DNA of 64,000 nucleotides from NCBI GenBank assembly GCA_047602425.1, contig JASGHG010000001.1, forward strand, positions 3,168,001 through 3,232,000, read 5' to 3'. Position 1 is the first letter of the stretch. The number at the start of each line of letters is the position of its first letter. Positions 14,149 through 31,078 of the stretch are shown one piece after another. The translations under genes and the position numbers were made by a program. Under the pieces are notes generated by a model, which worked only from the letters and a program-made list of their open reading frames with translations, did no database searches and was not told the DNA's origin. The stretch is from Nibricoccus sp. Lineage in GTDB: Bacteria; Verrucomicrobiota; Verrucomicrobiia; Opitutales; Opitutaceae.

Positions 14149-14160
14149 GAGAGGGACGGT

Positions 14161-14322: not shown

Positions 14323-14329
14323 GGGGAAA

Positions 14330-15001: not shown

Positions 15002-16641
15002 GGTGAAAATGACGATTTTCGGTTGTTCGTGGGGGAGAAGAGCCGTCCTTGGTCTTTGTCACGTATTACGTGACAATTGGCATTAGCGGTTGACGATTGT
15101 TGTCCATGGGGAGCGAAGGCGATGTGGTAGGTGGCAAGGGTGCGACCGGTTTGGCGGTCGTAGTCGGCAAGGGCTTTGCGGTGATCGGCACGGGCCTGGG
15201 CGGCGGCGATCTCGGCGCTGGAAAGTTGTTCCTGTTGGTAGAGGACGTTGAAGGTTGAGCCCGTTCCGGCGCGCAGGCGCTTGAGTTCGGCCTCGAGCAT
15301 TTCCTCGTTAAGCTTTTGGGCAATTTCGGTGGTGGCCACGCGATTGCGCGTGGACTCGACCTGTTGAGCGGCGTTACTGACGTCGATGAGGATATCCTGT
15401 TCGAGGCGCTCAAGATTAACTTCGGCCTGGCGCAGACGAAGCTTGGCAGCGCGGGCGCGACCGCGCTCGGCGGCGGAAGTCAGAGGAACGCTGACGGAAA
15501 TACCGGCGGAGCTGGCGACATAGGTTTGGCGGCGGGCGTCAGTTCGGCTCGCTGCGAAGTCCGGTCCGATGCCATTGTAGCCATAGCTTCCATTGAGATC
15601 GACGCGCGGTAGCAGTTGATTGCGATAGTAACGCCGGTCGAGGCCGCTTTTATCGACGCCGAGCTTGGCGCTGCGGTAGTCTGGCCGTTGTTTGAGGGCA
15701 TCGCGAAAGCCCGAAGCGGCATCGACGTCGACCGCCGGCGCGACCGGCAGCGGCTCAATGCGCAAATTCCAATGGAGAAAATCGGGGTTGTGTTCGTCAC
15801 CGATAAGTTGCTTGAGAAAATTTTCAGACAAACGAACGCCGCGCTCTGCGCGGAGGACATAGTCTTCGCGGTTGGCGACGCGGGCTTTTGCGGAAAGGAC
15901 ATCATATTCGGATGTCGCTCCTCGCTGACGCCGACCCTCGTTTTCGTTGTGAAGTTGCACGGCCATGTCACGGGAACGGATCGCGCTTCTGAGATAGGCG
16001 TGGGCGAGGTGCAGGTCACTGTAGGCGTAAATGACCTGGGTAATGAGGTTGGTTATGGTCTCGGCATATTCCCACTCGGAGATGGCGAGGTTGGTTCGGG
16101 CGATTCGGATTTCGTACAGACTGGGTGTAAGGCCGAAGTCGCGAAGCAAAGGTTGGGTCAACGAGACTCCGCCATAGGTCGCATAGCTGTCGGCGAAATT
16201 GTTAAACGTGCCCCGCTGATTGCTCGTCGTTGCCCCAAACTGATAGATTGTGCCAAGCGGGAGAAGGCCGGTTAAGGCGAGGCTGGCATCGTTGGTTTTG
16301 GAAACGTCCGCAGCCGGGCGGACGCCGCTGACCGGGTCGATTGGGTTGGGAGCTTCATCTTTCGCTTCCTGATAGGAACCGGTTATTTTAGGATCATACT
16401 TACCCCAGGCTTCGGTGAGCCTGGCGCGTGCGATCTGTGGATTGAACGCATTGACCTTGAGCACGAAGTTTTTTTCAAGGGCGAGACGGATGGCCTGTTC
16501 GAGATTGATGACCTTTTCGGTTTGCGCGGTGTCGGTCGCACCGTTGGCGCGTGGGGCCAGCGGTGACAGCGCGAGCAGAACAAAACCGAACAGACAACTT
16601 TGGAGAAAAAACGACATGATGGAACAGGCGCGGATTGTCAC
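14998..16641 (-). CDS. TolC-family outer membrane efflux protein (alternative start ATG 16617)
   Basis: Signal peptide; LEQAIRLALEKN; ALKQRPDY and LLPRVDL OEP repeats; stop overlaps the next start (ATGA). Confidence 0.88.
   Translation of the reverse strand: MTIRACSIMSFFLQSCLFGFVLLALSPLAPRANGATDTAQTEKVINLEQAIRLALEKNFVLKVNAFNPQIARARLTEAWGKYDPKITGSYQEAKDEAPNPIDPVSGVRPAADVSKTNDASLALTGLLPLGTIYQFGATTSNQRGTFNNFADSYATYGGVSLTQPLLRDFGLTPSLYEIRIARTNLAISEWEYAETITNLITQVIYAYSDLHLAHAYLRSAIRSRDMAVQLHNENEGRRQRGATSEYDVLSAKARVANREDYVLRAERGVRLSENFLKQLIGDEHNPDFLHWNLRIEPLPVAPAVDVDAASGFRDALKQRPDYRSAKLGVDKSGLDRRYYRNQLLPRVDLNGSYGYNGIGPDFAASRTDARRQTYVASSAGISVSVPLTSAAERGRARAAKLRLRQAEVNLERLEQDILIDVSNAAQQVESTRNRVATTEIAQKLNEEMLEAELKRLRAGTGSTFNVLYQQEQLSSAEIAAAQARADHRKALADYDRQTGRTLATYHIAFAPHGQQSSTANANCHVIRDKDQGRLFSPTNNRKSSFSP
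15056..15076. repeat. 21-bp perfect palindrome TTGTCACGTA-T-TACGTGACAA, in frame in the TolC C-terminal tail (CHVIRDK)
   Basis: Read directly; same family as the copies at 22521, 22577 and 31052. Confidence 0.8.
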
Positions 16642-16644
16642 AGC

Positions 16645-17364
16645 TTAGGCTTTGGCCTGAATGGGATTGGTCGATTCGGTCTGTTCCTGGACGATGCGGC
16701 CGTCGAAGAGATGCACGGTTCGGTCGGCCCGGCTGGCGAAGCGATTATCGTGAGTCACCATGACGATGGTGGCACCTTCACGATGGAGAGCGGAGAGTAG
16801 GTCCATGACCGCTTCACCGTTTTTCGAGTCGAGGTTACCGGTTGGTTCGTCCGCGAGGAGGACGGCGGGATCGCCGGCGAGGGCGCGGGCGACGGCGACA
16901 CGCTGTTGCTGACCGCCGGAGAGTTGCGAAGGCAGGTGTTTTGCACGATGGCTCATGCCGACTTTTTCGAGAGCACCGAGGACGCGTTGTTTGCGTTCGG
17001 CCGGGGCCATGCCGCGGTAGCTGAGCGGAAGCTCGACGTTTTCGAACACGTTGAGATCGCCGATCAAGTTGAATGATTGAAAAATGAAACCGATCTCGCG
17101 GTTGCGGATGCGGGCGCGGTCCGCGAGCGTGAGGCTTTGGACCGGCTGATTATTCAGCATGTAGGTGCCGTCGGACGGTGTGTCGAGCAGTCCAAGGATG
17201 GACAGCAGGGTGGATTTTCCGCAACCGGAAGGGCCGGCGATCGAGAGATATTCGCCCTTGTTGATTTCGAGGTGGATGCCGGAGAGGGCATGTGTTTCGA
17301 CCTCGTCGGCGAGGAAAACCTTGGTGACGGCGTTGAGCTGGATGAGAGGTGTTTTTTGTGACAT
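16645..17364 (-). CDS. ABC transporter ATP-binding protein (MacB/LolD-like), 239 aa
   Basis: [35 protein letters not shown]. Confidence 0.94.
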
Positions 17365-17391
17365 GGAGGTTGGATAGGGTTCGTGTTGAAA

Positions 17392-18645
17392 TCAGTTGAG
17401 TTTGATGCGGTCGGTGGAATCCCACTGGGACATATCGGAAAGGATCACGCGGTCGCCGGGGTGCAGGCCGTTGACGATTTCGATGGTGTTGACCGAACTA
17501 CGGCCGAGTTGGACGGTGGCGCGCTGGGCATGCACTCCATCGGCCGCGAGGAGGAAGAGGCCGATGTTGCTGCGTTCCTGGCCGGAAGCGGGGCGGCCAA
17601 CGTAGATGATGTCATTGAGCCGCTCGAGTTCAATGGTGCCATCGACGGAGAGAGACGGACGGGCGCCTCTGGGCAGCTCGCTGGTGAGGCGGATGTCGAC
17701 CGTCACAGTGCCATTTTGCACGGAAGGATCGATGCGGGAAACACGGCCTTCGATCAGGCCATTGCGCGTGTCGATGGAGGCTGGTTGGTCAAGTTGGATG
17801 TCGCGGGCCTGGGTTTCAGCAATGCGCACCTCGGCCTTGAGATGACTGGGATCGACGACGCGGGCGACGTTGGCGCCGGGCTGGACTTGGGCGCCCACTT
17901 CGACCGGCAACTCTTGAAGGACGCCATTCATGCCCGCGCGGACGTTGAGCGCTTCGGCATCGTCGCGGCGGAGTTTGGCCTGGGCTGTGGCGCGGTCGAC
18001 CGCTGCCTGTTTTACGGCGAGTTGCGGTTCGAGCGAGTCCTTTGTGAAGGCGTAGCGTTTCTTTTCGATTTCATAGCGGGAAGAGGCGTCCTCGGCGGCG
18101 ACTTTCGAGCGACGTAGTTCAAGAGCGGATACAAGACCGTCCTTGAACAAATCCTCGTTGACCTCGGCTTGAAGGCGGGTGGTCTCAAACGAGGATTTTG
18201 CCGCGGCGAGGCTGGCCTCGGCGTCGAGCACACCGCGTTGAAGCTGAACGTTGAAGGTGACGAATTCCGCTTCGGCGGACTTGAGGTCGGCCTCGGCGTC
18301 GACCGCGGCTTGTTGCACAGTCGGATTGGCCAGCACCAGGATCACGCTCTCGGGTTCGACGGCAGCGCCGGGACGCAGCACGATGCGTTCGACGCGGCCT
18401 TGTGTGCGAGCGGCGATCCAGCGGATTTCCTCGGGAATCAGCGTGCCGAGACCGCGAACTTGCCGAACCATTGAGCCCCGCTTAACGGTGTCGATCCAGA
18501 CAAGATTTTTGTCGACGGTCGGCGCCGCGGGTTTGAGGCGCGCAACGAGCACACTGACGACGATCAAAACTAAAGCGCCAGCGACGGCGTAGGTGAGACG
18601 ACGTTTCTTTTTGGCGCGGGCCAGATCGGGACGGGCGATATCCAT
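17392..18645 (-). CDS. HlyD/MacA-family periplasmic adaptor, 417 aa
   Basis: N-terminal basic patch and TM helix, lipoyl-like GRVERIVLRPG, coiled-coil hairpin, C-terminal GLHPGDRVILS. Confidence 0.9.
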   Translation of the reverse strand: MDIARPDLARAKKKRRLTYAVAGALVLIVVSVLVARLKPAAPTVDKNLVWIDTVKRGSMVRQVRGLGTLIPEEIRWIAARTQGRVERIVLRPGAAVEPESVILVLANPTVQQAAVDAEADLKSAEAEFVTFNVQLQRGVLDAEASLAAAKSSFETTRLQAEVNEDLFKDGLVSALELRRSKVAAEDASSRYEIEKKRYAFTKDSLEPQLAVKQAAVDRATAQAKLRRDDAEALNVRAGMNGVLQELPVEVGAQVQPGANVARVVDPSHLKAEVRIAETQARDIQLDQPASIDTRNGLIEGRVSRIDPSVQNGTVTVDIRLTSELPRGARPSLSVDGTIELERLNDIIYVGRPASGQERSNIGLFLLAADGVHAQRATVQLGRSSVNTIEIVNGLHPGDRVILSDMSQWDSTDRIKLN

Positions 18646-18656
18646 ATCCCTCTAAT

Positions 18657-18673
18657 TGCAGTCACCATGCCAA
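18657..18673 (-). promoter_or_regulatory. sigma54 -24/-12 promoter of the adaptor-ATPase-TolC-permease operon
   Basis: Minus strand TTGGCATGGTGACTGCA = GG-N10-GC; lies next to a sigma54 activator gene. Confidence 0.75.
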
Positions 18674-18748
18674 GCATATTTAGATTTTATAAGATGCGAA
18701 GCAATAAATAGATAAAAATTACTGCAACCAATCGGATAATCCAAACTG

Positions 18749-18785
18749 ACCGATGTTGGGAATACGCCGTCCCAAAAATGGGACG
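18749..18785. promoter_or_regulatory. Putative tandem enhancer (UAS): ACCG-N5-GGGAA plus perfect palindrome CGTCCCA-N4-TGGGACG
   Basis: Palindrome at 18768-18785, about 95 bp upstream of the sigma54 site; the same arrangement recurs at 22001-22037. Confidence 0.7.
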
Positions 18786-18799
18786 ATTTTCGAGGGTTG

Positions 18800-20131
18800 C
18801 TAAACCGGCAATTTCAAGGTGGCGATGCAGCCCGGTTCTGGCGCGCGGTTTTCCAACACGAGAGTACCGCCGTGATTTTCGGCAATTTGGCGGCTCAGCA
18901 CGAGGCCGATGCCTGTGCCTTCAGCCTTGGTGGTGAAAAAGGGAACGAAAAGATTGGCCGGATTGGCGATGCCGGGGCCGTCGTCTTCGACCATGATTTC
19001 GACGGTGCGCCCGGTGTGTATCCATTTTAGTCTTACGTTTGCTTCAGTGTGGCCGGCCGCACGTTGTTCGAGTGCGGCTTCGGTGGCGTTTTTCAAAAGG
19101 TTGATCAGGGTCTGTTCGATTTGTGCGGCATCGCACGAAATCGTAATATCGGGACCTCCGAGTATTTTTGCCGGCTGGCGGAGTTCGATCGCGCTCACGC
19201 GGTCGACGAGGAGCTTTACGGAGCAAGGAGCGCGCACCGGCTGTGGCAGACGCGCGAGCCGGGCGTAAGCCTGCATGAAACGAGTGAGGCTCTCGGCGCG
19301 CGATGAGATGATGTCGAGGCCGCCCAGCATGTCGGCTTCCCAATCGGAAGCGCGTCTCGGGCTTTTGAAAATCTGTGCGAGACTGCCGGCGATGGATTTG
19401 ATGGGCGTGAGCGAATTATTGAGTTCGTGTCCGATCACGCGCACGAGCCGCTGCCATGCCTGGAGCTCCTCGGCGCGCAGAGCCTGGCTCAGATCGGCGA
19501 TGACAACCAGTTCGTGGGGAAGGCCCTTTTCGCGAAACGAAGTCCGTCGCAGACCCCAGCGTCCGGTTCCACCCGGGAAAGTTGTGTCACCAAGCAAACG
19601 GTTCGGTTCGCCCCTCAGGCATTCGGCCAGACCGAGTTCGGCGGCGGGCCGGTGCAGCAGCTTTTCGGCGGGTGCGGCCAGAAGTTTTTCGCCGGCGCGA
19701 TTGGTGAGTTTGAGCTGGCCGGAGCTGTCGAAGGCGAACACGGCGACCTCGATTGTTTCCATCACGGTATGAAGCAAGGCGGTGGCTTCATGGGCGCTGA
19801 GCCGTTGCTCATGCAGCACGCGGCTCAGCTGGTTTATCTCCATGAACAGCTCGCCGAGCGGATCGTCGTGGCGGGCGGCATGGGCGCGAACCGAAAAATC
19901 GCCTTCGCGCAAGGCGGCGAGAAGATTGGCCGCGGTCTGGAGCGGGCGAATGACGCGGTTGTGAAGCGCCGCCGAAAAACCGAACCAACAACCTAAGATA
20001 AGAAACGTCAGCGTGAGCTGAAGATTGAACGAGTGATCGCCTGTCCAGAGAAGCCACAGACCCAGCGCCGCGGCCGGTGCGCCGGCGAAAATGGCGTAGA
20101 GAAAAATATGGCGATCGTGCGAAAGTCGCAT
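18800..20131 (-). CDS. Sensor histidine kinase (2 TM, HAMP, PAS-like, HisKA, HATPase), 443 aa
   Basis: H-box IGHELNNSLTPI, N-box INLLKNA, DDGPG, FFTTK, GTGIGL. Confidence 0.93.
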   Translation of the reverse strand: MRLSHDRHIFLYAIFAGAPAAALGLWLLWTGDHSFNLQLTLTFLILGCWFGFSAALHNRVIRPLQTAANLLAALREGDFSVRAHAARHDDPLGELFMEINQLSRVLHEQRLSAHEATALLHTVMETIEVAVFAFDSSGQLKLTNRAGEKLLAAPAEKLLHRPAAELGLAECLRGEPNRLLGDTTFPGGTGRWGLRRTSFREKGLPHELVVIADLSQALRAEELQAWQRLVRVIGHELNNSLTPIKSIAGSLAQIFKSPRRASDWEADMLGGLDIISSRAESLTRFMQAYARLARLPQPVRAPCSVKLLVDRVSAIELRQPAKILGGPDITISCDAAQIEQTLINLLKNATEAALEQRAAGHTEANVRLKWIHTGRTVEIMVEDDGPGIANPANLFVPFFTTKAEGTGIGLVLSRQIAENHGGTLVLENRAPEPGCIATLKLPV

Positions 20132-20161
20132 GAAGAGGGTTTTGTTGCCTCTTCGGTATGG

Positions 20162-21529
20162 CTAAAGTCCGTATTTTTCCAGCCTTCTGTAGAAGGCGCT
20201 GCGGCTCAGGCCAAGTTCCTCGGCGGCTTCGCGGGCGTTGCCATTGCAGCGGGCGAGGGTGCGTTTGATGAGATAACCTTCAACTTCCTCCAAACTCATT
20301 TCGTCGAGACTCTGTGAGGTTTGACTGGCATTGAGGCCGAGATCGACCGCGCGGATCGCCTTGTTCGTGGCCATGAGGACGCCGCGCTCGACGGCATGGT
20401 CGAGTTCGCGGACGTTGCCCGGCCAGGGATAGCGGTTGAGCAAATTGAGGGCGTCTTCATCGAACCCGGTGACGGCCTTGCGGTAACGGCCGACGTGTTG
20501 CTTGAGGAAATGTTGGGCGAGAAGCGGTATGTCTTCGCGACGTTCGCGCAACGGCGGCAGGTGGATATGGATGGTGTTGAGGCGGAACAGGAGATCCTGG
20601 CGGAATTTCCCGGCGGCCACCTCGCCTGGCAGATCGGAATTGGTTGCGGAAACAAGGCGGACATTGACCCGATGCGTTTTCGAAGAGCCCACACGTTCGA
20701 ATTCGCCGCGCTCCAGCGTGCGGAGCAATTTGGCCTGCTGGGTGAGCGGAATATTGCCGATCTCGTCTAGGAAAAGAGTCCCTCCATCGGCCAGTTCGAA
20801 GCGTCCGGCGCGGTCGGCCTTGGCATCGGTGAAAGCACCTTTGACGTGGCCGAACAATTCGCTCTCAAACAATCCCTCGGGCAGCCCGCCCATGTTGACG
20901 GAAATCAGCGGCTTGACCGCGCGGGACGAGGTCGCGTGAAGGGCTTGAGCGATAACGCCTTTGCCCGTGCCATTTTCACCGGTGATGAGGATATTGGCGT
21001 CCGATGGACCGACGCGGGCAATGACTTCGAGGACGGGGCGCATGGCGGGCGACTGCGCGATGAGCACGGGCCCGGCGGAACCGCGGAGAAGTTTATTTTC
21101 TTCTTCAAGCCGCCGGTAAGTGCGCATGGCGCTGCCGAGTTCCACCTGAGTGCGCACAGTGGCGATAAGGCGGGGATTGTCCCACGGTTTGGTAATGAAA
21201 TCCTTGGCACCCCGTCGCATGGCTTCGACGGCGAGTTCGACCGTGGCCCACGCGGTCATGACGACAATGGGCAGGCCTGAGTCGAGGGTTTGAATGCGAC
21301 TGAGCAACTCGAACCCTTCCTGTCCGGACGTTGTATCTCGCGCATAGTTTAGGTCCATGATCACCAGCGAGAACTCGCGGGCCTCGATGGCGCGCAGGAC
21401 GGTGGCAGGCGATTTGGCGGTTTCGATTTGATATCCTTCGGCCTTGAGAAGCAGGCGGAGTGCTTCGAGCACGTCGGCTTGGTCGTCGGCAACGAGAATC
21501 CGGTGGGCGGTGGGGTCCGAAAGGGCCAT
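20162..21529 (-). CDS. sigma54-dependent (NtrC-family) response regulator
   Basis: REC domain (VADD, MDL, KP), AAA+ GENGTGK, ESELFGH-GAFTDA, LFLDEI, WPGNVREL, Fis-type HTH; ATG at 21529 preferred over the track's TTG. Confidence 0.93.
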   Translation of the reverse strand: MALSDPTAHRILVADDQADVLEALRLLLKAEGYQIETAKSPATVLRAIEAREFSLVIMDLNYARDTTSGQEGFELLSRIQTLDSGLPIVVMTAWATVELAVEAMRRGAKDFITKPWDNPRLIATVRTQVELGSAMRTYRRLEEENKLLRGSAGPVLIAQSPAMRPVLEVIARVGPSDANILITGENGTGKGVIAQALHATSSRAVKPLISVNMGGLPEGLFESELFGHVKGAFTDAKADRAGRFELADGGTLFLDEIGNIPLTQQAKLLRTLERGEFERVGSSKTHRVNVRLVSATNSDLPGEVAAGKFRQDLLFRLNTIHIHLPPLRERREDIPLLAQHFLKQHVGRYRKAVTGFDEDALNLLNRYPWPGNVRELDHAVERGVLMATNKAIRAVDLGLNASQTSQSLDEMSLEEVEGYLIKRTLARCNGNAREAAEELGLSRSAFYRRLEKYGL

Positions 21530-21598
21530 GGGAAACAAGCGGGCAGGTTAGGTGATATCTCCGGGATCGGGCAAGGGCGGAAGAGTGCGCGCGAATTT

Positions 21599-21880
21599 TT
21601 ATGCGATCATCTTTTCCGCCCGGTGACCGCCGTGGGTATGAGCATGGCGAATGAGCGAAACGCGAATCCAATGACGGCTGGGCCTTGCGGACAGCTTCAG
21701 ACCGAACCGCGCATAACGGGGGGCGTAGTCCGCCGCAGTCAGGAAGAAAAGACCTGCGAGCGTGTAGGCACCGAAGAGAAGGTCGGCGGAAAATTCGCGA
21801 CCGGCGAGAAGCCAAGCGCAAATGGTGGGAGCGGAGAGGCTCAAGGCGAGCATGATGATGAGGCGATTTGAGTTTTTCAT
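21599..21880 (-). CDS. Small hypothetical membrane protein, 93 aa (two hydrophobic helices)
   Basis: MKNSNRLIIMLALSLSAPTICAWLLAG...LLFGAYTLAGLFFLTAADY; starts about 17 nt after the predicted +1 of a sigma54 promoter. Confidence 0.6.
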   Translation of the reverse strand: MKNSNRLIIMLALSLSAPTICAWLLAGREFSADLLFGAYTLAGLFFLTAADYAPRYARFGLKLSARPSRHWIRVSLIRHAHTHGGHRAEKMIA

Positions 21881-21907
21881 GATGTCTTTTGGTTGCGCTT
21901 TATTATT

Positions 21908-21924
21908 CGCAACAAGCATGCCAA
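21908..21924 (-). promoter_or_regulatory. sigma54 -24/-12 promoter upstream of the small protein/regulator/kinase genes
   Basis: Minus strand TTGGCATGCTTGTTGCG = GG-N10-GC, close to consensus. Confidence 0.78.
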
Positions 21925-22000
21925 GTGGTTGTATGAAGTATAAATACCGTAGCACCAAGACATAGCAGATTAACGCAATTGATCTTCGCTGCGCAAAAAC

Positions 22001-22037
22001 ACCGTGCGCGGGAAAATTTATTCCCGAAAATGGGACG
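22001..22037. promoter_or_regulatory. Second copy of the tandem enhancer (ACCG-N5-GGGAA plus ATTCCCGAAAATGGGACG)
   Basis: 15/18 match to 18768-18785; 96 bp from its sigma54 site versus 95 bp for the first copy. Confidence 0.7.
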
Positions 22038-22099: not shown

Positions 22100-22939
22100 T
22101 CAATGGCGTACGGCCGACCAGAAACGGCATTCGTCGGAGAAGTCAGTTACGGCTTTCGACTCACGGGCGATATCACGGCGCAAGGCGTCGAAAGTGTGAT
22201 GCCAGCCGGTGGCGGCGAGATCGTCGAGAATTTCATTGCGGTCTGGCAGATGCATGAAGGTTCGGCCTGTCTCGTCTTCGAAATAGCGATCGCCGAATTC
22301 GAGGAGGCGCGGATCCTGTTTGCCTTCCGACCAACGAAGTTTTTCGAGTCGCCACAGAGCCTGCTCGGTCGCGCTGGAATCGCGATCGTGGGTGGTAAAA
22401 AGCAGCGGCGCGCCCGGGCGACAGACAGCGTGCAGTTCGCGGAGTGCGGCTCGCCGGTTGTCGCGACCAGGAATCTGCATCACCCCGTTAAACATGAAGA
22501 GAGCGCCGGCAAACGAACCATTGTCATCCATTAGATGACAAGTGCTGCTGGATGGTGGCCGGGGCGAAAAGGCAGTTTTGTCATCTAATAGATGACAAAG
22601 GTTTGGTGCGGATTGGCGGAGGTGGGTGGCGTCGGCGTGGTGGAAACGGATGGCGGTGGCGCCTCGTTCGGCGGCGAGGCTGCGGGCTTGTTCGACGAGT
22701 TCCTCGGCGAAATCGAAGGCGGTGAGATTGTGATAGCCTTCGTGCCAGAGTCCGAGCGTGACACGGCCGGAGCCGCAGCCAGCTTCGAGGAGAGGAGCGG
22801 TTTTGTCGGTGAAGAAACGTTCGATCAAGAGCTGTTCGGATTTCCAGAGGCCGAGGAAGTGTGCGGCGCGCGTATAGTGAACGACGGCAATGGGATCGTT
22901 GAAATCGGCGCGGACGGTTTCTGAAGATATTTTTTTCAC
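22100..22939 (-). CDS. Class I SAM-dependent methyltransferase (GTG start at 22939 inferred)
   Basis: Motif I LLEAGCGSGR, AFDFA, HADAT, CRPGAPLLF; contains an insertion carrying two palindromes. Confidence 0.82.
   Translation of the reverse strand: MKKISSETVRADFNDPIAVVHYTRAAHFLGLWKSEQLLIERFFTDKTAPLLEAGCGSGRVTLGLWHEGYHNLTAFDFAEELVEQARSLAAERGATAIRFHHADATHLRQSAPNLCHLLDDKTAFSPRPPSSSTCHLMDDNGSFAGALFMFNGVMQIPGRDNRRAALRELHAVCRPGAPLLFTTHDRDSSATEQALWRLEKLRWSEGKQDPRLLEFGDRYFEDETGRTFMHLPDRNEILDDLAATGWHHTFDALRRDIARESKAVTDFSDECRFWSAVRH
22521..22599. repeat. Two palindromes 57 bp apart, in frame in the methyltransferase (CHLMDDN, CHLLDDK)
   Basis: TTGTCATCCATTAGATGACAA (22521-22541) and perfect TTTGTCATCTA-A-TAGATGACAAA (22577-22599). 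Confidence 0.85.
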
Positions 22940-23165: not shown

Positions 23166-24341
23166 TTAAGTACGCTTTTTCCACGCGGCGATAAACATGC
23201 CGTTGGCATTCAGGGCGTGAGGCCAAAGCGTGACGCTGGTGTCGGTAAAGAGGTCGGTTTCGGCGAGGGAGCAGGCGGGGCTGCTGAATTGGTTTGCCGG
23301 AGCGGTGGGTTTCGGAAAAACGGGCGCCGGCTCCAACTCTGGATGTGCAGTGCCAAAGGCGTTGGCGATGGCGGTTGTTTCGGAGCGGGTGAGCGTGCAA
23401 ACGGCGTAGATCAGGCGGCCATTGGGCTTGAGAGAACTGGCGACATTTTCAAGGAGCTGGCGCTGGATCGCGGCGAGTTCGGAGACGTCGGTTTCGGTGG
23501 TGGTCCAGCGAGCGTGCGGATTGCGCTGCCAGGTGCCGAGGCCGCTGCAGGGGGCGTCGACGAGAATGCCGTCGAATTTGGCCTTGGTGGGTAGTTTGGC
23601 TGAACCATCCCACGAGGCGACGCGAAAATTGAAGAGTTTAGCGCGGGCCGCGCGCTGTTTCAGTGTGTGAAGGCGACGTTCAGAGCGATCACTGGCCCAG
23701 ATGAGGCCTTTGTTTCGCATGAGATCCGCGAGATGGAGCATTTTGCCTCCTTCACCGGAGCAGGCGTCCCACCAAGTTTCTCCGGGCTTGGGAGCGCAGG
23801 CGAGGCCCACCATTTGGGAGGCGAGATCTTGAATTTCGAAAAGACCGTTGTGGAAGGCCGGGGTGAGAAAGAGATCCTGCTGACCGCGATAACGAAGGGC
23901 GTCGGGCGAATGCGGAGTGGTTTCGCAGTCACCCAGGGTCGCGGCGAGTTTTTCGGCGGTATCGGGGCGGGCGCGTAGCCAGAGGGCGGGTTCGGTTTGG
24001 AGCAGGCGAAGGGTTTCGGTAGGGTAGTCGACCTCGTTGCGAGCCCAGGCCGGAACGGCGCGGGCGGCGAGGGCTTCGGCTTTGATGCTGGCGGGATTTT
24101 TTTCGAAGCGTTCCTGCAACTTGAGGGCTTCCTCGATTTTCTTTTGAGCGGAGGCTTTTTCGTCGAGCCACTGAAACCAGCGAAAGTAGGTAAAAACCGC
24201 CCGGCTGATGGCGCGTTTTTCGCGAGGGCCGGGGCGGCGGGCACTGACGAAATATTTGCGGAGCGCGACATCGGCACGCACTTCAGGCGTGATCGTGGCG
24301 AGCACGCGGGCTGCGTGATTGAGCGTGAGAGAATCGATCAT
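23166..24341 (-). CDS. RsmB/NOP (NOL1/NOP2/Sun) RNA m5C methyltransferase, about 391 aa
   Basis: FEIQDLASQ, WDACSGEGGK, ILVDAPCSG, YAVCTL (both catalytic Cys present); ATG at 24341 preferred. Confidence 0.88.
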   Translation of the reverse strand: MIDSLTLNHAARVLATITPEVRADVALRKYFVSARRPGPREKRAISRAVFTYFRWFQWLDEKASAQKKIEEALKLQERFEKNPASIKAEALAARAVPAWARNEVDYPTETLRLLQTEPALWLRARPDTAEKLAATLGDCETTPHSPDALRYRGQQDLFLTPAFHNGLFEIQDLASQMVGLACAPKPGETWWDACSGEGGKMLHLADLMRNKGLIWASDRSERRLHTLKQRAARAKLFNFRVASWDGSAKLPTKAKFDGILVDAPCSGLGTWQRNPHARWTTTETDVSELAAIQRQLLENVASSLKPNGRLIYAVCTLTRSETTAIANAFGTAHPELEPAPVFPKPTAPANQFSSPACSLAETDLFTDTSVTLWPHALNANGMFIAAWKKRT

Positions 24342-24398
24342 GTTCGGGAAGACGGAACGCGACCGGGGCGGGGAATGCGAATAGTTTTTGAGCCGGCG

Positions 24399-24415
24399 CT
24401 GGCACTTCGGCTGCT
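24399..24415 (+). promoter_or_regulatory. sigma54 -24/-12 promoter of cynS
   Basis: CTGGCACTTCGGCTGCT = GG-N10-GC. Confidence 0.65.
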
Positions 24416-24428
24416 GTGCGATGCGCAT

Positions 24429-24872
24429 ATGACGAAATCATCGATGGTTGAGGCAATAGTCGCGGCAAAGTTGGCGAAGAAGGTAACGTGGGCCTCGATT
24501 GCGAAGGCGGCGGGACTTTCTGAGGTATTTGCGACGTCGGCTTGTTTGGGTGAAAACGCTCTGGAGGCGTCGGAGGCGCAGAAGGTCGCGAGTTTCCTTG
24601 GGTTGGGGCCGGACATTGCGGAGGCACTGACACAATTTGCCAACAAGGGCGAAGCGTCGCCGACCATCCCGAAAGAGCCGCTGCAATATCGGTTTCAGGA
24701 AATCATCTATGTTTACGGATCAACGATGAAGGCGTTGATCGAAGAAAAATTTGGCCCCGGTATTATGAGCGCGATCGATTTCACAATGGAGATAGATCGT
24801 GTGCCCGATCCGAAGGGTGATCGCGTCAAGATCACGATGAACGGAAAGTTCCTTGGCTATAAAAAGTGGTGA
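24429..24872 (+). CDS. cynS: Cyanate hydratase (cyanase), 147 aa
   Basis: EPLQYRFQE (catalytic R/E), EKFGPGIMSAIDF, DRVKITMNGKFL; true start is the ATG inside the longer track ORF. Confidence 0.95.
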   Translation: MTKSSMVEAIVAAKLAKKVTWASIAKAAGLSEVFATSACLGENALEASEAQKVASFLGLGPDIAEALTQFANKGEASPTIPKEPLQYRFQEIIYVYGSTMKALIEEKFGPGIMSAIDFTMEIDRVPDPKGDRVKITMNGKFLGYKKW

Positions 24873-24921
24873 CCGCTCAAGCGGATGGCCTTGGTCGGCC
24901 GGCATTTCCTCTTGCAGTGGT

Positions 24922-27900
24922 TTAGCTTCGTTTGGCCCAGCGTTTGTCTTGCTTGAGTTCGAGGCGTTTGGTTTCGAGTTCGACGCCCACGACGGCAGGG
25001 TGATTGCGAAGCTGCTGGAATTTGGCCGGAAGAAGTTTCCACCCGAGGGCACTACTCGCATCGGATACGACGGAGGCGCGTTGCTCGAAGACAAAGGCGA
25101 TGGAAATTTTGGTATCGCCAGTGTTTTTGTTAAGCGTTTCGCGAAGCACCTGGAGAAAATCGTTCAGTTTTTCGTGTTGCGGGTCGAGGAGCCAGGTGAC
25201 GCGGCGAACGCTGCCGCTGACAAAATTTTCCAACGGGTAGCATTCCTTCACGTTGATGCGGGCGCCGTCCTGACCGACGATGATATTGCCCTGTACGAGA
25301 ACCGGGGCGTTTTCGGCGAGGTTCATCGAGTAGGCGGCGTAGGCGTCGGCAAACATATTGAGCGCGACGGAAGCTTTGCGCGTGGCGAGCGTGAAAGCGG
25401 CCCAGGGGCGGTTGTCCTTTTTAGAAAGTTTTTTGGCGATGTTGCCCACGATGCCACAAAGGCGAAATTCGGTACGGTCGGGTTGGTTGAGCAATTGATC
25501 GACCGGAAAAGTATCGATCGCTTCGGCGAGCCCGGCGTAGGCATTGAGCGGGTGGCCGGAGACATAGAACCCGAGGAGTTCCTTTTCGAAGGTTAGGCGT
25601 TCGGTGGAGGTGAAGTCATCCGACGCGGCATCGGGTGACAATTTGAGATTTGAAATTTGGGCTTTGAGATTGCGCGCCTTGGGCGCGGGTTCATCCAGCA
25701 TGTCGAGCATGTTGAACTGACCGGCGGCGCGGTCACGCGCCTGCGAGGCGGCGCCGGCAAGGGCGGCGTCGATGCTGTCGAAAAGTTTTTTGCGCGAGGC
25801 ACCGCTGTAATCGAAAGCTCCCGTCTTCGTGAGGTGTTCGAGCACGCGTTTGTTGATGGCGCGGCCATCGACACGCTTCACGAGATCCTCGAAGCTGGCG
25901 TAGGGGCCGTTTTTCTCGCGTTCCTCGATGATCTTTTGCGCGGCCTGCTCGCCAACGCCCTTGATGCCGGCGAGGCCGAAACGGATCTTATCTCCAACCG
26001 GCGTGAAGTTTTCACGCGACTCGTTGGCGTCGGGCCCGAGCACGGTGAGGCCCATGGCTTCGCACTCGGCGATGAAATGGGCGACTTTTTCGGAGTTGCC
26101 GAGTTCGGCGGTGAGAACGGCGGCCATGAACTGCACCGGGTAGTTGGCTTTCAAATACGCCGTTTGATAGGCGACCATCGCATAGGCGGCGGAGTGCGAT
26201 TTATTGAAGCCGTATTGGGCGAACTTATTCAGCAAATCGAAAATTTCGTTGGCCTTCTTTTCGTCGATATTGTGGTGCTGTTTCGCGCCGGCGACGAATT
26301 TCACACGCTCCTTCGCCATGCCCTCGACATCCTTTTTGCCCATGGCGCGCCGGAGCATGTCGGCGCCGCCGAGCGTGTAACCTGCAATGACGCGGGCGCA
26401 CTCCATAACCTGTTCTTGATAGACAATGATGCCGTAGGTTTCCTTGAGAACGGGTTCCAGCAGCGGGTGCGGATACTCGATGGTCGTTGGATCTTTTTTG
26501 CCGCGCGCGTAGTCGGGGATGAACTGCATCGGACCCGGGCGATAGAGCGCGGAAATGGCGTTGATGTCGTCTATATTGGAGATACCGACGAGTTTTGAGG
26601 CGTTTTGCATGCCGCCGGATTCGAGCTGGAAAACGCCGACGGTCTTGCCGGAGTTGAGCAGCTTGTAGGTGACCGGATCTTCGAGAGAAATTGTTTCTAT
26701 GTCGAAGTTTAGGTTGACGGTGCGGCGAACATTTTCGACGGCGTCGGAGATGACAGTGAGCGTCTTAAGACCAAGGAAGTCCATCTTGAGCAAGCCTAGC
26801 TTGCCCACGGCGTTCATGTCGTACTGGACGGTAACGTCGCCTTCTTGCAGCGTGAGCGGGACAAATTCGTCGAGCGGCTTGTCGGTGATGATGATGCCGG
26901 CGGCGTGCTTGCCGGTGTTGCGGACCATGCCTTCGAGGACGCGGGCCTGGCCGACGATTTTTTTGGCGACGGGATTGCGCTCGATCTCGTTGCGAAGATC
27001 GGCGGACTTGGTGATAGCATCCTCCAGAGAGATGTTGATCTCGTCGGGGATCATTTTGGCGATACGGTCCGCTTCGGCATAAGGCAGGTCGTTGACGCGC
27101 GAGACGTCGCGGATGACCATCTTGGCACCGAGCGTGCCATAGGTGATGATGTTTGAGACGCAGTCCTTGCCGTATTTTTCGCGGACGTAGTTGATGACCT
27201 CCTCGCGGCGGCGCATGCAGAAGTCGATATCGAAATCGGGCGGGGAGACGCGTTCGGGATTCAGGAAGCGCTCGAACAGCAGGCCGAAACGAATCGGATC
27301 GATGTTGGTGATGGCGAGTAGGTAGGCAACGAGACAGCCTGCGCCGGAGCCGCGACCCGGGCCGACGGGAATATTGTGCGCCTTGGCCCAGTTGATGAAA
27401 TCCCACACCACCAGGAAGTAATCGACAAAGCCTGTGACGTTGATGATCGAGAGCTCGTAGCCCATGCGCAGCACGAGCAATTCCTCGGGAGCGAGGCCGG
27501 AATAATCGGGAGCCTTGGGTTTTTCGCCGGGTGGGAGGTTCGTGAATTTGGCGAGGCGCTCGGCGACAATCGGGTGCGTCGCGATGGAAGGCTGGTCGAC
27601 GTTGTAACGTTTTTTCAGGCCTTCGACGCAGAGATCGAAGAGATACGTGGCGCGATCGACCTTGATTTCTGGCGGTAGTGGATATCTCGGGTAGCGCTCG
27701 CTGCCTTTTGGAAACGGAATGGCGAGATCGCACATCTCGGCCACAAGCTGCGTATTGGTCAGCGACTCGGGGATTTCGCCGAAAATCTTGGCCATTTCGT
27801 CGCGCGATTTCAGGAAAAATTCGTTCGTGCTGAAACGCATCCGGTTCTCGTCGGCGATTTTTGCACCGGTCTGGATGCAGAGCATGGCGTCGTGCGGACC

Positions 27901-28563
27901 AGCGTCGGCGGCGTTGACGTAGTGAACGTCATTCGTGCAGATGACCTTGAGACTGAATTCTTCGGCGAGCTTGAGCAGGCCGGGAATAATTTTGCGCTGC
28001 TCGGGCAACCCGTGGTCTTGGATTTCGACAAAAAAGTTTTCGCGGCCAAAAACGTCGACGAAACGTGCCGTGGCTTTGCGGGCGTCTTCTTCTCGATCAT
28101 GCAGAAGATGTTGCGGGACAATTGCCGCCAGGCACCCACTGAAAGCGATGAGCCCGCCGGAGTATTTCGTCAGGGTTTCCCAGTCGGCGCGGGGCTTGTA
28201 ATAGAAGCCCTTAAGATGCGCATCGGAAACGAGTTTGAGGAGGTTCTGGTAGCCTTGGAGATTTTTGGCGAGGAGGCCCAAATGGTAGTAACTTTTACCG
28301 TCTTCCGCGCGGCCATTTTTCTCCAACCGGGAGTTTTCAACCAGGTAAATTTCGCAGCCGATAAGCGGCTTTATGTTTTTGTCCTTCGCGGCCTTATAAA
28401 ATTCAATCGCACCAAACATATTGCCGTGGTCGGTGAGCGCGAGGGCCGTCATCCCGAGACTCGCGGTGCGGTCCATCAGGCGGTCGATCCGGCAGGCTCC
28501 ATCGAGCAGGCTATAGTCAGTATGGACGTGGAGATGGACGAAGTTTTTGTCGGCGGAGGACAC
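24922..28563 (-). CDS. dnaE: DNA polymerase III subunit alpha, 1213 aa
   Basis: PHP FVHLHVHTDYSLLDG, GPGRGSGAG, PDFDIDF, KMDFLGL, YGFNKSH. Confidence 0.97.
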   Translation of the reverse strand: MSSADKNFVHLHVHTDYSLLDGACRIDRLMDRTASLGMTALALTDHGNMFGAIEFYKAAKDKNIKPLIGCEIYLVENSRLEKNGRAEDGKSYYHLGLLAKNLQGYQNLLKLVSDAHLKGFYYKPRADWETLTKYSGGLIAFSGCLAAIVPQHLLHDREEDARKATARFVDVFGRENFFVEIQDHGLPEQRKIIPGLLKLAEEFSLKVICTNDVHYVNAADAGPHDAMLCIQTGAKIADENRMRFSTNEFFLKSRDEMAKIFGEIPESLTNTQLVAEMCDLAIPFPKGSERYPRYPLPPEIKVDRATYLFDLCVEGLKKRYNVDQPSIATHPIVAERLAKFTNLPPGEKPKAPDYSGLAPEELLVLRMGYELSIINVTGFVDYFLVVWDFINWAKAHNIPVGPGRGSGAGCLVAYLLAITNIDPIRFGLLFERFLNPERVSPPDFDIDFCMRRREEVINYVREKYGKDCVSNIITYGTLGAKMVIRDVSRVNDLPYAEADRIAKMIPDEINISLEDAITKSADLRNEIERNPVAKKIVGQARVLEGMVRNTGKHAAGIIITDKPLDEFVPLTLQEGDVTVQYDMNAVGKLGLLKMDFLGLKTLTVISDAVENVRRTVNLNFDIETISLEDPVTYKLLNSGKTVGVFQLESGGMQNASKLVGISNIDDINAISALYRPGPMQFIPDYARGKKDPTTIEYPHPLLEPVLKETYGIIVYQEQVMECARVIAGYTLGGADMLRRAMGKKDVEGMAKERVKFVAGAKQHHNIDEKKANEIFDLLNKFAQYGFNKSHSAAYAMVAYQTAYLKANYPVQFMAAVLTAELGNSEKVAHFIAECEAMGLTVLGPDANESRENFTPVGDKIRFGLAGIKGVGEQAAQKIIEEREKNGPYASFEDLVKRVDGRAINKRVLEHLTKTGAFDYSGASRKKLFDSIDAALAGAASQARDRAAGQFNMLDMLDEPAPKARNLKAQISNLKLSPDAASDDFTSTERLTFEKELLGFYVSGHPLNAYAGLAEAIDTFPVDQLLNQPDRTEFRLCGIVGNIAKKLSKKDNRPWAAFTLATRKASVALNMFADAYAAYSMNLAENAPVLVQGNIIVGQDGARINVKECYPLENFVSGSVRRVTWLLDPQHEKLNDFLQVLRETLNKNTGDTKISIAFVFEQRASVVSDASSALGWKLLPAKFQQLRNHPAVVGVELETKRLELKQDKRWAKRS

Positions 28564-28679
28564 AGCTTCAGAGGGAACGACGGTTGATGGGTTTTTTCAA
28601 AGGGGAAAATGGGGTTGACGATGGAAAATTTATTCTGCCTATTCGTCGTCTTTTTCCGTTCACCAACCCGTCTGACAAC

Positions 28680-28877
28680 ATGCCCATCGAAATCAAAATC
28701 CGCAAAAACGAGCCCGTTGATCGTGCGCTCCGTCGCATGAAGAAGAAGCTCGATCGCGAGAACATCATCAAGGGTGTTCGTGCGAAGCGCTACCATGAGA
28801 AGCCGTGCGAAAAACGCCGTCGCAAAGAAAAGGTCATGGCCTTCACCGCGATGCTGCGCCGCCGTCACGCGGAATAA
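28680..28877 (+). CDS. rpsU: 30S ribosomal protein bS21, 65 aa
   Basis: IKIRKNEPVDRALRRMKKK...RYHEKPCEKRRRK. Confidence 0.95.
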   Translation: MPIEIKIRKNEPVDRALRRMKKKLDRENIIKGVRAKRYHEKPCEKRRRKEKVMAFTAMLRRRHAE

Positions 28878-28905
28878 GCGACTATTTGCGTTTTGCTCCT
28901 TTTTC

Positions 28906-28947
28906 ACGACCGCACTCCCGCACACGGAGCGCGGTCGTTTTCTTTTT
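28906..28947 (+). terminator. Intrinsic terminator after rpsU
   Basis: ACGACCGCACTCC/GGAGCGCGGTCGT stem followed by a T-rich tract. Confidence 0.7.
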
Positions 28948-29011
28948 GGCGTTGCGACCCGGCGCTGGAACCGTGTTTTAGGCGGGTAGGTCCTAGGAAA
29001 CGGTTGTTCCA

Positions 29012-29953
29012 TTGAAGCCAACGCTTTCACTTTCCACCAGTTGGTGTTCCCCGCGTCACAACGACGGTTACACGATGCTTCGCGAGATCGCGGACCTCGG
29101 GTTCACGCACGTGGAACTCAGCCATGGCATCCGCATCACGCTTGTGCCGGGTATTCTGAAGGCGGTTGAAGAAGGCGTGATCAAAGTCGGATCGACGCAT
29201 AATTTTTGCCCGCTTCCAACAGGCATCACGCGGGCGGCCCCCAATCTTTTCGAACCATCTTCCAGCGACAGCCGGGAGCGCGACCAATGGCTTCGCCAAA
29301 CTCAGCGTTCGATCGAATTCGCCGCGCAACTTAATGCCCGCGTGCTGGTCGTGCACCTTGGCAGCGTGCGATTTGGTCTGGTCGATCCAGTGAGGAAACT
29401 CGACGCCTACGCCGCACAACATCCCGGCGTCGATCTTGCGACCGACGTCGAGTATCAGGAACTTCTTTCGACCTCGCTCGCGAAAATGCGAAAACGCATG
29501 CGGCCTTATTGGGAGCGAGTCTTGCATTGCATCGAAGGCGTGCGCGCCTTCGCCGCCGAACGTGGCGTTGCGCTTGGCTTCGAAAACCGGGAAGGCTTCG
29601 AGGAACTCCCGCTCGACGCCGATTTTGAAAAGCTGATTTATGGCGTGGCGCAGCCCAACACGGTCGGCTACTGGCACGACACCGGCCACGCCGAGCTCAA
29701 GCAACGCATGGGTTTGCTCAAACACCGCGCGCATCTCGAAACCCACGCCGCCCGTCTGATCGGTTTTCACCTGCACGACGTCGACATCGAGGGCAACGAC
29801 CATCAACCAGTCGGCGAAGGCACCATCGATTTTTCCATGATCAGTTCGTTTTGGAAACCGCATCATTTGCTCGTGCTCGAGTTCAGTCCCCGTCTCGAAG
29901 TTGAAGACGTGAAAATTTCAAAACAACGCATCGAGGCGTTGATGAAAAAGTAA
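29012..29953 (+). CDS. Sugar-phosphate isomerase/epimerase-like TIM-barrel protein (AP_endonuc_2), 313 aa
   Basis: VELSHG, LVVHLG, GFEN, WHDTGHA, FHLHD, DHQPVGEGTIDF, VLE metal motifs. Confidence 0.82.
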   Translation: MKPTLSLSTSWCSPRHNDGYTMLREIADLGFTHVELSHGIRITLVPGILKAVEEGVIKVGSTHNFCPLPTGITRAAPNLFEPSSSDSRERDQWLRQTQRSIEFAAQLNARVLVVHLGSVRFGLVDPVRKLDAYAAQHPGVDLATDVEYQELLSTSLAKMRKRMRPYWERVLHCIEGVRAFAAERGVALGFENREGFEELPLDADFEKLIYGVAQPNTVGYWHDTGHAELKQRMGLLKHRAHLETHAARLIGFHLHDVDIEGNDHQPVGEGTIDFSMISSFWKPHHLLVLEFSPRLEVEDVKISKQRIEALMKK

Positions 29954-29976
29954 ACCTGAGCTCATTGCTCTTTCTT

Positions 29977-30876
29977 ATGAAAACCCACCTCCGTCAGATT
30001 TGTGTGACGTTAACCGCCCTGGTCGCAGCGCTCTCGCTCCGAGCCGCCGGCGAAAATCCCGCTCCGGCGTCAGCTGCTCCAGCCGCTGCAACTCCCGCTG
30101 TGGCGCCAGCCGAGCCTGCTCCGAGCGCTGTGCAGACGGAGCTCAAACAATTGGTCGATAAAATCAAAACCAAGCTCCGCGCCGGTTCCCGGACCGAGGC
30201 GATGCTGGCCGAGGAGCTGAAAGGTTTCGATGCCATCCTTGCCGCGCACAAAGGCGAACAAAGCGAGGATCTCGCGCAAGTTCTGATGATGAAAGCCGGG
30301 CTCTACATCGAAGTATTTCAGAACGCCGAAAAGGGCGAAGCGCTGGTCAAACAAATCAAAACGGATTACCCCAATACCGAACTGGCCAAACAGACTGATA
30401 ACATCCTGGCCATGCTGGCCCAAAGAAAAGAGTCCGAAAAGATGAAGGCGGCCTTCGCCGTCGGTGCGATTTTTCCCGGATTTGAGGAAAAAGATCTGAA
30501 TGGACAACCGCTCTCCATCGCCAAATTCAAGGGCAAGATCGTCTTGGTCGACTTTTGGGCCACCTGGTGCGGACCGTGCGTCAACGAACTGCCCAACGTG
30601 ATCGCCGCCTACAATAAATACCACGCCAAGGGCTTCGAAATCGTCGGCATCAGCCTCGACAAGGATGAAGCCGCGTTGAAGAAGTTCATTGAGGATAAAA
30701 AAATGCCCTGGCCGCAGTATTTCGATGGCAAAGGCTGGCAGAGCAAACTGGGCCAGAAATACAGTATCGACAGCATTCCCGCCACTTTCCTGCTCGATGG
30801 CGACGGCAAGATCATCGCCAAAAACCTGCGCGGCTCTGCGCTCGAAGCCGAGTTGGAAAAACACCTCGGTAAATAA
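29977..30876 (+). CDS. TlpA/redoxin-family thiol-disulfide oxidoreductase, exported, about 299 aa
   Basis: Signal peptide, helical N-domain, VDFWATWCGPC, IPATFLLD. Confidence 0.9.
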   Translation: MKTHLRQICVTLTALVAALSLRAAGENPAPASAAPAAATPAVAPAEPAPSAVQTELKQLVDKIKTKLRAGSRTEAMLAEELKGFDAILAAHKGEQSEDLAQVLMMKAGLYIEVFQNAEKGEALVKQIKTDYPNTELAKQTDNILAMLAQRKESEKMKAAFAVGAIFPGFEEKDLNGQPLSIAKFKGKIVLVDFWATWCGPCVNELPNVIAAYNKYHAKGFEIVGISLDKDEAALKKFIEDKKMPWPQYFDGKGWQSKLGQKYSIDSIPATFLLDGDGKIIAKNLRGSALEAELEKHLGK

Positions 30877-30967
30877 TCGAGCATTTTTTCCGACCGTGCA
30901 GACGGTCTAGCGAGCCGTCCGCATACGTTGGTTTTTTGCCGCGGGGACATCCGCGAAATCTCTTTCC

Positions 30968-30998
30968 AAGCCCGTCTCACCCGAGACGGGCTTTTTTT
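30968..30998 (+). terminator. Intrinsic terminator
   Basis: AAGCCCGTCTC-ACCC-GAGACGGGCTT followed by TTTTT. Confidence 0.75.
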
Positions 30999-31051
30999 AT
31001 CGCTGACGAAAAACTGTTGATCACGTCTTCCCTGGACGAAATCTCCCAGAG

Positions 31052-31078
31052 AGTTTGTAACTTAATAGATTACAAACT
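31052..31078. repeat. Intergenic copy of the palindrome family, AGTTTGTAACTTAATAGATTACAAACT
   Basis: 19/23 identity to the 22577 copy, with a compensatory C:G to A:T change in the arms. Confidence 0.7.

Follow-up and report, generated by a model that had tools for sequence, protein, structure and literature searches.

A dispersed 21-bp palindrome family of Opitutaceae and the small helix-turn-helix gene that it brackets

Background

What kind of element is a 21-bp palindrome that recurs along a bacterial chromosome, sometimes inside protein-coding genes? The question is raised by a stretch of 64,000 nucleotides (the window) from Nibricoccus sp. (Verrucomicrobiota, Opitutaceae; assembly GCA_047602425.1, contig JASGHG010000001.1, positions 3,168,001 to 3,232,000), in which a first-pass annotation, made from the letters alone, had noticed four such palindromes. 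The source genome, G000 (other genomes also carry G numbers, contigs C numbers and loci L numbers), is one contig of 5.16 Mb, and the window is G000:C1:3168001-3232000. We describe here the repeat family to which these palindromes belong, a small helix-turn-helix (HTH) gene bracketed by them, the co-occurrence of the two, a correspondence between protein residues and palindrome bases, a ladder of spacings between paired sites, and positions that are filled in some genomes and empty in others. On balance we favour the reading that the palindromes are operators of an Opitutaceae-specific XRE/Cro-type HTH protein, and that gene and operators together make up a minimal mobile module, the operators having spread with help from the protein, which would act via a host enzyme.

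Results and discussion

The window palindromes belong to a large family

The core pattern TTGTCA-N9-TGACAA occurs 69 times in G000; with any other spacer of 0 to 21 the count is 0–2. With a weight matrix, 125 copies score 18 bits or more, and one order-4 Markov genome of equal length contains no match even at 10 bits or more. A broader pattern that includes further sequence classes finds 152 copies, exactly four of them in the window; 101 are of the T7 class, 13 of the CCT class, 27 of other C7 classes and 11 mixed. With gene positions from a home-made gene caller, 19 of the 152 lie in genes, 75 in tandem gaps, 39 in convergent gaps and 19 in divergent gaps. Counted by cluster, convergent gaps are favoured (24 versus 14.7 expected) and divergent ones avoided (10 versus 20.4 expected; p=0.004). 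The 89 clusters are uniform along the origin-terminus axis (Kolmogorov-Smirnov p=0.62, origin and terminus taken from GC skew), and no common function was found among the 92 neighbouring proteins scanned, which represent about a third of the G000 clusters and loci of G002, G003 and G022. A weak symmetric consensus extends about 8 bp into the flanks, which further out are unrelated. Ten of the 65 isolated sites have copy-specific extended arms of at least 6 bp (0.67 expected), and these longer arms are the sole hint of strand templating.

All four palindromes that the first-pass annotation had placed in the window are present, and its view of them as a genome-wide element holds well, the copy number being far above random expectation. 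It had made much of insertion in frame into proteins. The shared C-H-x-x-x-D-K reading is real (CHVIRDK, CHLMDDN and CHLLDDK on the minus strand of the three coding copies), but it is forced by stops that fill the other two frames: among 254 site-strands this frame is open in 252, and the others in 26 and 36. Most copies are intergenic, so in-frame insertion is not the main feature of the family. The arm differences that it had read as compensatory separate sequence classes; within the main class there is no covariation, and arm symmetry is no higher than with shuffled arms (0.46 at position 8, against 0.56 shuffled). Confinement to the promoters of one regulon, which would have spoken against a genome-wide element, is contradicted by the placement of the copies and their unrelated neighbours.

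Several conventional explanations were considered for the repeats themselves. A role as RNA hairpin is not favoured, with more C.A than G.U mismatches on the sense strand and no Rfam match (there are 0 in window 14000-33000). Miniature inverted-repeat elements or insertion sequences would be expected to leave traces, and we found neither homology of flanks or spacers with the sites masked nor a transposase among the neighbours. A palindrome that lies inside the DNA-binding gene itself (RhuM/ORF6N-like) was also considered, and none of the in-frame host genes scanned encodes a DNA-binding protein. Two further features of G000 are recorded here in their own right: G.T-type arm mismatches are unequally distributed (102 versus 61 favouring the leading strand, 103 versus 60 favouring the centre-A strand), and three loci near C1 positions 1563137, 1842212 and 4495876 share another repeat, of about 60-130 bp, that is unrelated to the palindromes.

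A small HTH gene accompanies the palindromes

Among the 80 matches listed from a pattern scan of species genomes, 77 carry Opitutaceae, Opitutia or Verrucomicrobia in their titles; the other three (L042, L100 and L112) have non-verrucomicrobial titles, which may reflect chance, misbinning or transfer. When open reading frames near sites in other genomes were clustered, one recurring gene was not a housekeeping gene, and this is a small HTH gene. G000 has a single such gene, with sites 46 and 123 bp upstream (Table 1). We collected 116 distinct genes from 58 genomes plus 7 loci found by pattern (109 chosen by protein, 7 by site). The motif GT..AWT..AC lies near 91 of them and on both sides of 69, and some flanking 21-bp dyad is found at 105, in 43 half-site variants. 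The start codon lies at most 29 bp from the nearest site in 90 of 101 genes, by a heuristic that favours short values. Several intact HTH genes lack a flanking palindrome (L182 and L184 of G120 and G164, L288, L313, L323, L332 and L334), and these may no longer be autoregulated or may rely on a different site.

Among 151 genomes of the family, site counts run from 0 to 229 and vary even within genera; 46 have no core-pattern site. The gene is found in 78 of the 151, with 1–8 paralogues each, and 73 give no gene match. It is present in 49 of the 51 genomes with at least 20 sites versus 29 of the 100 others (Spearman 0.76), counts in which kin are not independent, and three gene-bearing genomes without a pattern match have variant palindromes adjoining the gene. 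A survey of the phylum found the gene in 10 of 20 genomes of the family and in 0 of 230 others. The viral contigs searched held no relative of the protein, and a phage origin was rejected on that account.

Comparison with Pfam, NCBIfam and PHROGs assigns the G000 protein to no family, and no solved-structure relative was found by sequence; some of its relatives give weak YdaS/HTH_3/Cro Pfam matches, and in the ESM Atlas unnamed Verrucomicrobiota clusters come first, with phage CII/HTH_3 at 0.89-0.90. Its AlphaFold model (predicted local distance difference test score, pLDDT, 80) is all-helical, with a long helix at residues 7-33 and a four-helix domain at 52-112. Residues 43-118 resemble XRE/Cro/C-protein domains, the best match being C.EcoT38IS (2ef8) (best Z 7.1, root-mean-square deviation 3.3 Å, 68 residues aligned). 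The top matches are nearly all of XRE/Cro/POU type, at modest scores (Foldseek E of at least 0.35). By its predicted structure, then, the partner is an XRE/Cro-fold HTH protein without a library family; a catalytic domain is absent. It has 289 close relatives, and a search at E<=1e-10 gave 148 representatives. The ratio of nonsynonymous to synonymous substitution is 0.04-0.28 in seven gene pairs and 0.41 in one recent pair, from a set of 14; of the rest, two pairs were at saturation, one lacked synonymous changes and three were not computed. A sigma-70 scan gave no promoter at the G000 gene, and the sequencing runs listed for it include no RNA data set. Remnants or broken paralogues, a conceivable source of the orphan classes discussed below, were sought in G000 and none was found.

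Protein residues track palindrome bases

At the 105 genes with a dyad (the 11 others are left out; residues are numbered as in G000), residues in or beside the predicted recognition helix vary with the bases of the flanking half-site: residue 68 with base 1, 82 with bases 2-3, 83 with bases 3-6, 84 and 87 with base 7, and 94 with base 8. Arg84 goes with C or T at base 7 in 96/96 cases and other residues there with A in 9/9; Asp or Glu87 goes with C7 in 60/64, and Leu, Val or Met87 with T7 in 16/16. Similarly, Arg94 accompanies C8 (27/28), Lys82 a purine at base 2 (9/9), Gln83 C or A at base 5 (95/95, versus 1/10 without it) and Arg68 T1 (51/63 versus 6/42). The chemistry is sensible, an acidic residue being paired with C, an aliphatic one with T, and Arg with the G opposite C. 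It is very probable that the protein binds the 21-bp dyad.

A test of each rule on the protein tree, using well-supported branches only, was too weak, and a blind test was therefore run: two rarer site classes were counted genome-wide and found in 18 and 19 of the 151 genomes, and the residues predicted from them were written down before the genes were looked for. All 19 genomes with the second class have the gene. The predicted non-Arg84 protein was found in 6/6 genomes, and the non-Gln83 protein in 4/7 testable genomes, three with the exact site and the fourth with a related one; the reading of one genome was incomplete. A further class with GTTTCAC/GTTTCAT arms (L195, L281 and L333, in G088, G145 and G049) goes with Pro at residue 82. 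We take these arms to resemble parS half-sites pushed apart by the AT centre, and cross-talk with ParB is possible.

Paired sites are spaced on a helical ladder

In G000, 35 of the 89 clusters hold more than one site (fewer than one is expected), and 37 of 41 pairs are of a single class. The 67 spacings measured near HTH genes fall into groups at 44-47, 53-58, 63-69, 76-81 and 87-90 bp, with a periodicity (R=0.46, period 10.7) above that of all 300 jittered controls. Loops formed by the lac repressor in vivo peak at 55, 66 and 77 bp (PMC3001091), and by analogy the ladder suggests duplex DNA with two dimers on the same face. The centre bases of G000 pairs are in T-A order 22 times and A-T 4 times, and near HTH genes elsewhere 21 and 18 times. 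The pairs do not look like tandem duplications or a composite element: their flank identity is 0.23-0.29 versus 0.26 for random pairs, and they share no spacer. Genome G022, which has three paralogues, contains composite arrays (L024, C19:74000-93000) in which sites of three classes take turns at intervals of about 47-59 bp, the linkers between them being repeated, much like bacterial interspersed mosaic elements.

Filled, empty and decayed positions

The gene itself changes locus: the neighbours of the G000 partner gene are not adjacent in G002, G003 or G004. Three G003 paralogues, one with an internal stop, share 92% identity over a stretch that begins at the outermost upstream site and ends about 95 bp beyond the downstream one, and in two genes of one genus the shared sequence reaches only to the flanking sites. 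G000 orthologues of genes that neighbour cassettes elsewhere have a site in 11/74 cases versus 179/3672 (p=8e-4). One case lies in the window: behind mutY, at the position equivalent to the solo site at 31055 (Table 1), G160 has a complete site-HTH gene-site cassette. Single copies likewise differ among orthologues. A rhamnosidase gene has about 8 codons more than its empty allele, a GH2 gene has a length-neutral replacement of 7 codons with no indel, and an AcrB-family gene has the copy in G000 only. Three of 30 uvrA loops contain sites of their genome's own class, that of G042 being identical to the flank of its HTH gene. Not all copies of the gene move, and one paralogue clade stays beside dusB across many genera.

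In the window, the methyltransferase loop is 18-96 codons long over 32 orthologues (33 were found and one, in which the anchor motif failed, was dropped), and 17 of the 32 carry a site there; in G097, G098 and G073 that site is identical to the one beside the genome's own HTH gene. Both sites and their 57-bp spacing are retained in 5/5 orthologues of the genus, while the codons in between diverge. The loop is hypervariable even in genomes free of sites, and it is thus a general insertion hot spot. The tail extension of the TolC-family gene that holds site 15056 is absent from the G002 and G004 orthologues, which end earlier. This extension (window 14998-15130) appears to be formerly intergenic DNA captured through loss of a stop codon in this lineage. 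Site 15056 belongs to an orphan class, for which no matching HTH paralogue was found in G000. The gap orthologous to window 30876-31181 holds an apparent GTAG-tagged repetitive extragenic palindromic (REP) pair in G004 (L234) and a different inverted-repeat pair in G002 (L225), so that one gap collects different repeat families.

Table 1. Palindromes and genes discussed in the text (window positions unless a contig is given)
Feature	Position	Strand	Remarks
TolC-family outer-membrane efflux gene (PF02321)	14998..16641	-	Genome-specific C-terminal extension holds site 15056
Palindrome, C7 (GTCACGT) class	15056..15076	strandless	3' tail of TolC-family gene; 0 arm mismatches
S-adenosylmethionine-dependent methyltransferase gene	22100..22939	-	Hosts the 22521/22578 pair inside a variable loop
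Palindrome, main T7 (GTCAT) class	22521..22541	strandless	1 arm mismatch; matches the single HTH gene of G000
Palindrome, T7 class, second of pair	22578..22598	strandless	0 arm mismatches; 57 bp from 22521
Thioredoxin-like gene	29965-30876	+	Flanks site 31055
Solo palindrome, mixed class	31055..31075	strandless	2 arm mismatches; intergenic, between thioredoxin-like gene and mutY
mutY	31181-32242	-	Flanks site 31055
Partner HTH gene of G000, 118 amino acids	G000:C1:83154-83510	-	Outside the window; sites at 83536 and 83613

In one genome that lacks the gene, the sites appear to have decayed. G004, a complete genome in one contig without the gene, has 25 copies within 3 mismatches, 2 of them exact, and G000 has 59 exact of 108, a comparison made with the pattern as defined in G000. 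Among the neighbours of the 116 genes there is no recurring transposase, recombinase, restriction-modification or cargo gene, the recurring ones being housekeeping genes, and we have therefore discarded the idea of a shared mobilising enzyme beside the cassettes. There are two single cases of another kind: in G148 (L192) the cassette begins directly after the end of a gene that we take to resemble an integron-type tyrosine integrase, and a XerC/D-like gene adjoins the G000 site at C1:4144978 (L007).

These results also bear on the remaining suggestions of the first-pass annotation. A site for a dimeric DNA-binding protein is now the most likely nature of the palindrome, a co-distributed protein having been found; the search it had proposed for such a protein or a transposase gave the former and not the latter. 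The coding copies do lie in segments that look dispensable, either variable loops or a tail extension, and the comparison of orthologues that it recommended revealed both filled and empty alleles. Symmetry is not kept for its own sake, each class being a fixed sequence that matches one protein variant. Its parallel with parS or matS, as an organiser tied to a chromosome region, finds no support in a uniform distribution and site counts that differ so widely within the family.

A possible mechanism and its rivals

The mechanism that we envisage has four steps. A dimer would bind the 21-bp dyad with one subunit per half-site, bases 1-8 being read by residues 68, 82-87 and 94 around an invariant A-W-T centre. 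The protein would repress its own gene, as suggested by the nearest site, which abuts the start codon. Two dimers would cooperate on one helix face, probably joined via the long N-terminal helix, as the spacings suggest, and site pairs would therefore persist at steps of about 11 bp. Lastly, and least certainly, the joining of two sites may favour recombination or template switching catalysed by host enzymes. By this route the cassette could enter or leave existing sites, leaving solo sites such as 31055, bare copies of 21-27 bp could be seeded, and old sites could be rewritten to the resident class. Copies would survive where they are harmless, at gene ends, in variable loops and in the single stop-free frame. 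The fullest form of this idea is a selfish element: a repressor-like protein with no catalytic activity of its own would synapse sites, host recombination or template switching would act on them, and the protein would in this way have its operator copied and rewritten across the chromosome. This would be a spreading mechanism of a new kind, and we offer it tentatively, as a possibility that falls somewhat short of even chances.

A number of observations weigh against the mobile module, beyond the limits already given for the start-codon distances, the co-occurrence counts and the decay comparison. Only the left end of the G003 triplet coincides with a site, and two of its copies, near contig ends, share more flank; where G000 has a solo site at a cassette position, the site is usually not of the donor's class. 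Seven genomes with at least 10 sites gave no gene match. The orphan C7 classes of G000, site 15056 included, make up about 40 of the 152 sites, have no matching gene and look undecayed, and G019 (19 copies) and G043 (14) hold an undecayed class that lacks a matching gene. The 34 spacings of G000 itself are bimodal (57 and 78), and their periodicity is not significant alone. The protein tree, with the code columns excluded, is poorly resolved, and among the results listed for its well-supported branches no single rule is significant (the best of these is 4/4 pairs, p=0.125). The blind test failed in G097, G107 and G132, which have 3-5 copies, and succeeded partially in G090, and the sites beside two further non-Arg84 genes are T7 instead of A7, so that the rule is "not C" and not "always A". 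Finally, the divergence of the methyltransferase spacers between sites that keep their 57-bp spacing fits a selected host function as well as it fits rewriting.

Such a host function is the main rival, although an unlikely one. The protein would be a domesticated architectural or insulating protein, with a role in making small loops, in preventing read-through at gene ends or in shaping the nucleoid, and its sites would have spread by rare unassisted events that were then selected. The constancy of the methyltransferase pair, purifying selection on the gene, the enrichment of convergent and depletion of divergent gaps, the synteny of the dusB-linked clade and the decay of sites in gene-less G004 all agree with it. 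It is harder to reconcile with a gene unmatched in 73 of 151 genomes and sites absent from 46, with presence that flips within genera, with 43 specificities and up to 8 paralogues, and with the lack of an origin-terminus pattern and of functional relationship among the neighbouring genes. An ordinary transcription-factor regulon would account for the XRE fold and the apparently autoregulatory pair of sites, but the sites avoid divergent promoters, favour convergent ends and occur inside genes, the 92 neighbouring proteins have no function in common, and positions upstream of orthologues are not conserved; we regard it as the least probable of the explanations considered.

It is very unlikely that the palindromes are REP-type repeats moved in trans by an HUH (RAYT/IS200) transposase, with the HTH gene as passenger or regulator. 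The architecture does resemble REP-RAYT loci (PMC3116915; PMC3733652), the copy-specific extended arms could reflect single-strand templating, and PF01797 is found in 44 of 51 site-rich versus 69 of 100 other genomes (p=0.03). Nevertheless, the four PF01797 matches of G000 are each separated from their closest site by 12-87 kb, such matches are lacking in seven genomes that have 20-110 sites, GTAG and CGTC occur at only 5 and 6 of 304 ends, the spacers of pairs are mutually unrelated, sense-strand C.A mismatches outnumber G.U (66 to 36), and no shared enzyme lies near the cassettes. An uptake-sequence-like drive, in which incoming DNA that bears sites as marks of self would be preferentially retained or recombined through the protein, is also quite improbable. 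Cognate pairs of receptor and dialect are known for ComP and DNA uptake sequences (DUS) (PMC3868556; PMC3630211), and such a drive would suit the length-neutral GH2 replacement and the class changes at orthologous positions. On the other hand, point mutation could not build a dyad as long as 21 bp, there are net insertions of about 8 codons, the fold is that of a cytoplasmic repressor, and gene bracketing and phased pairs would be left unexplained. DUS copies number thousands, far above the roughly 150 found here.

Relationship to known systems

The closest likeness is to REP/RAYT systems. There too the partner gene is bracketed by its own repeat and paralogues each have their own repeat type (PMC3116915, PMC3733652), and dispersed singlets and pairs prefer tandem and convergent gaps (PMC3733652). 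The GTAG REPs of O. terrae have in-frame copies in genes such as uvrA (PMC3733652), so that in-frame uvrA copies are common to both systems, and doublets are over-represented here as well. The partner here, however, is an XRE-fold protein of 118 residues and not a PF01797 HUH Y1 transposase; the palindrome is a near-perfect AT-rich dyad without the GTAG/CGTC foot, the spacers of its pairs have unrelated sequences and lengths that follow a helical ladder, and the gene itself changes locus. The system is thus REP-RAYT-like in layout and fails both defining tests, the HUH enzyme and the GTAG/CGTC foot. XRE/Cro proteins and the C proteins of restriction-modification systems resemble the partner in the fold of residues 43-118, in the palindromes as putative operators and in the pairing of these upstream of the protein's own gene (PMC3488213), but no restriction-modification or cargo gene adjoins it, sites are present downstream of the gene as well and at 10-200 places elsewhere, and the protein has an additional long N-terminal helix.

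The chromosome-organising systems Noc with its binding sites (NBS), SlmA with its own (SBS) and MatP/matS likewise consist of one sequence-specific protein and tens of palindromic sites within and between genes (PMC4726725). Their sites avoid or mark the terminus and their proteins are of ParB, TetR or MatP type (PMC4726725), whereas here the distribution is uniform and the protein is patchy, multi-copy and widely varying in specificity. We have rejected a region-specific chromosome organiser on these grounds, the gene being present in only 78 of 151 genomes, in 1-8 copies. DUS/ComP systems also have lineage-specific dialects matched to a cognate protein and copies tolerated in genes (PMC3868556). 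The present system differs in its few copies and its gene bracketed by sites. ComP acts on extracellular DNA, and DUS are short and non-palindromic. The Rickettsia palindromic elements are also translated in frame in unrelated proteins (PMC3733652), but the present unit measures 21 bp, lies mostly between genes and can be assigned a partner protein. Full-text literature searches, which did not cover subscription journals, found no description of this system. Six of its motifs are absent from the four text supplements of PMC3733652, which do not include the consensus list of its Figure 1, and a term search of the available text of PMC12306157 gave no Verrucomicrobia.

Implications

For dispersed palindrome families of bacteria, the usual account is a nuclease (RAYT), or else no partner is known. 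The partner in this case is a DNA-binding protein and nothing more, so that the origin, spread and persistence of a short repeat become testable with a protein of 118 residues and a 21-mer. An oddity of annotation is also explained, in that the C-H-x-x-x-D-K peptides in Opitutaceae proteins are DNA sites and not protein motifs. The 43 natural half-site variants and a readable residue-to-base code may serve studies of how protein-DNA specificity evolves, and possibly provide an orthogonal repressor set. If the selfish form of the proposal is true, paralogues would diversify in specificity to escape one another, giving rise to dozens of orthogonal protein-operator pairs within one bacterial family.

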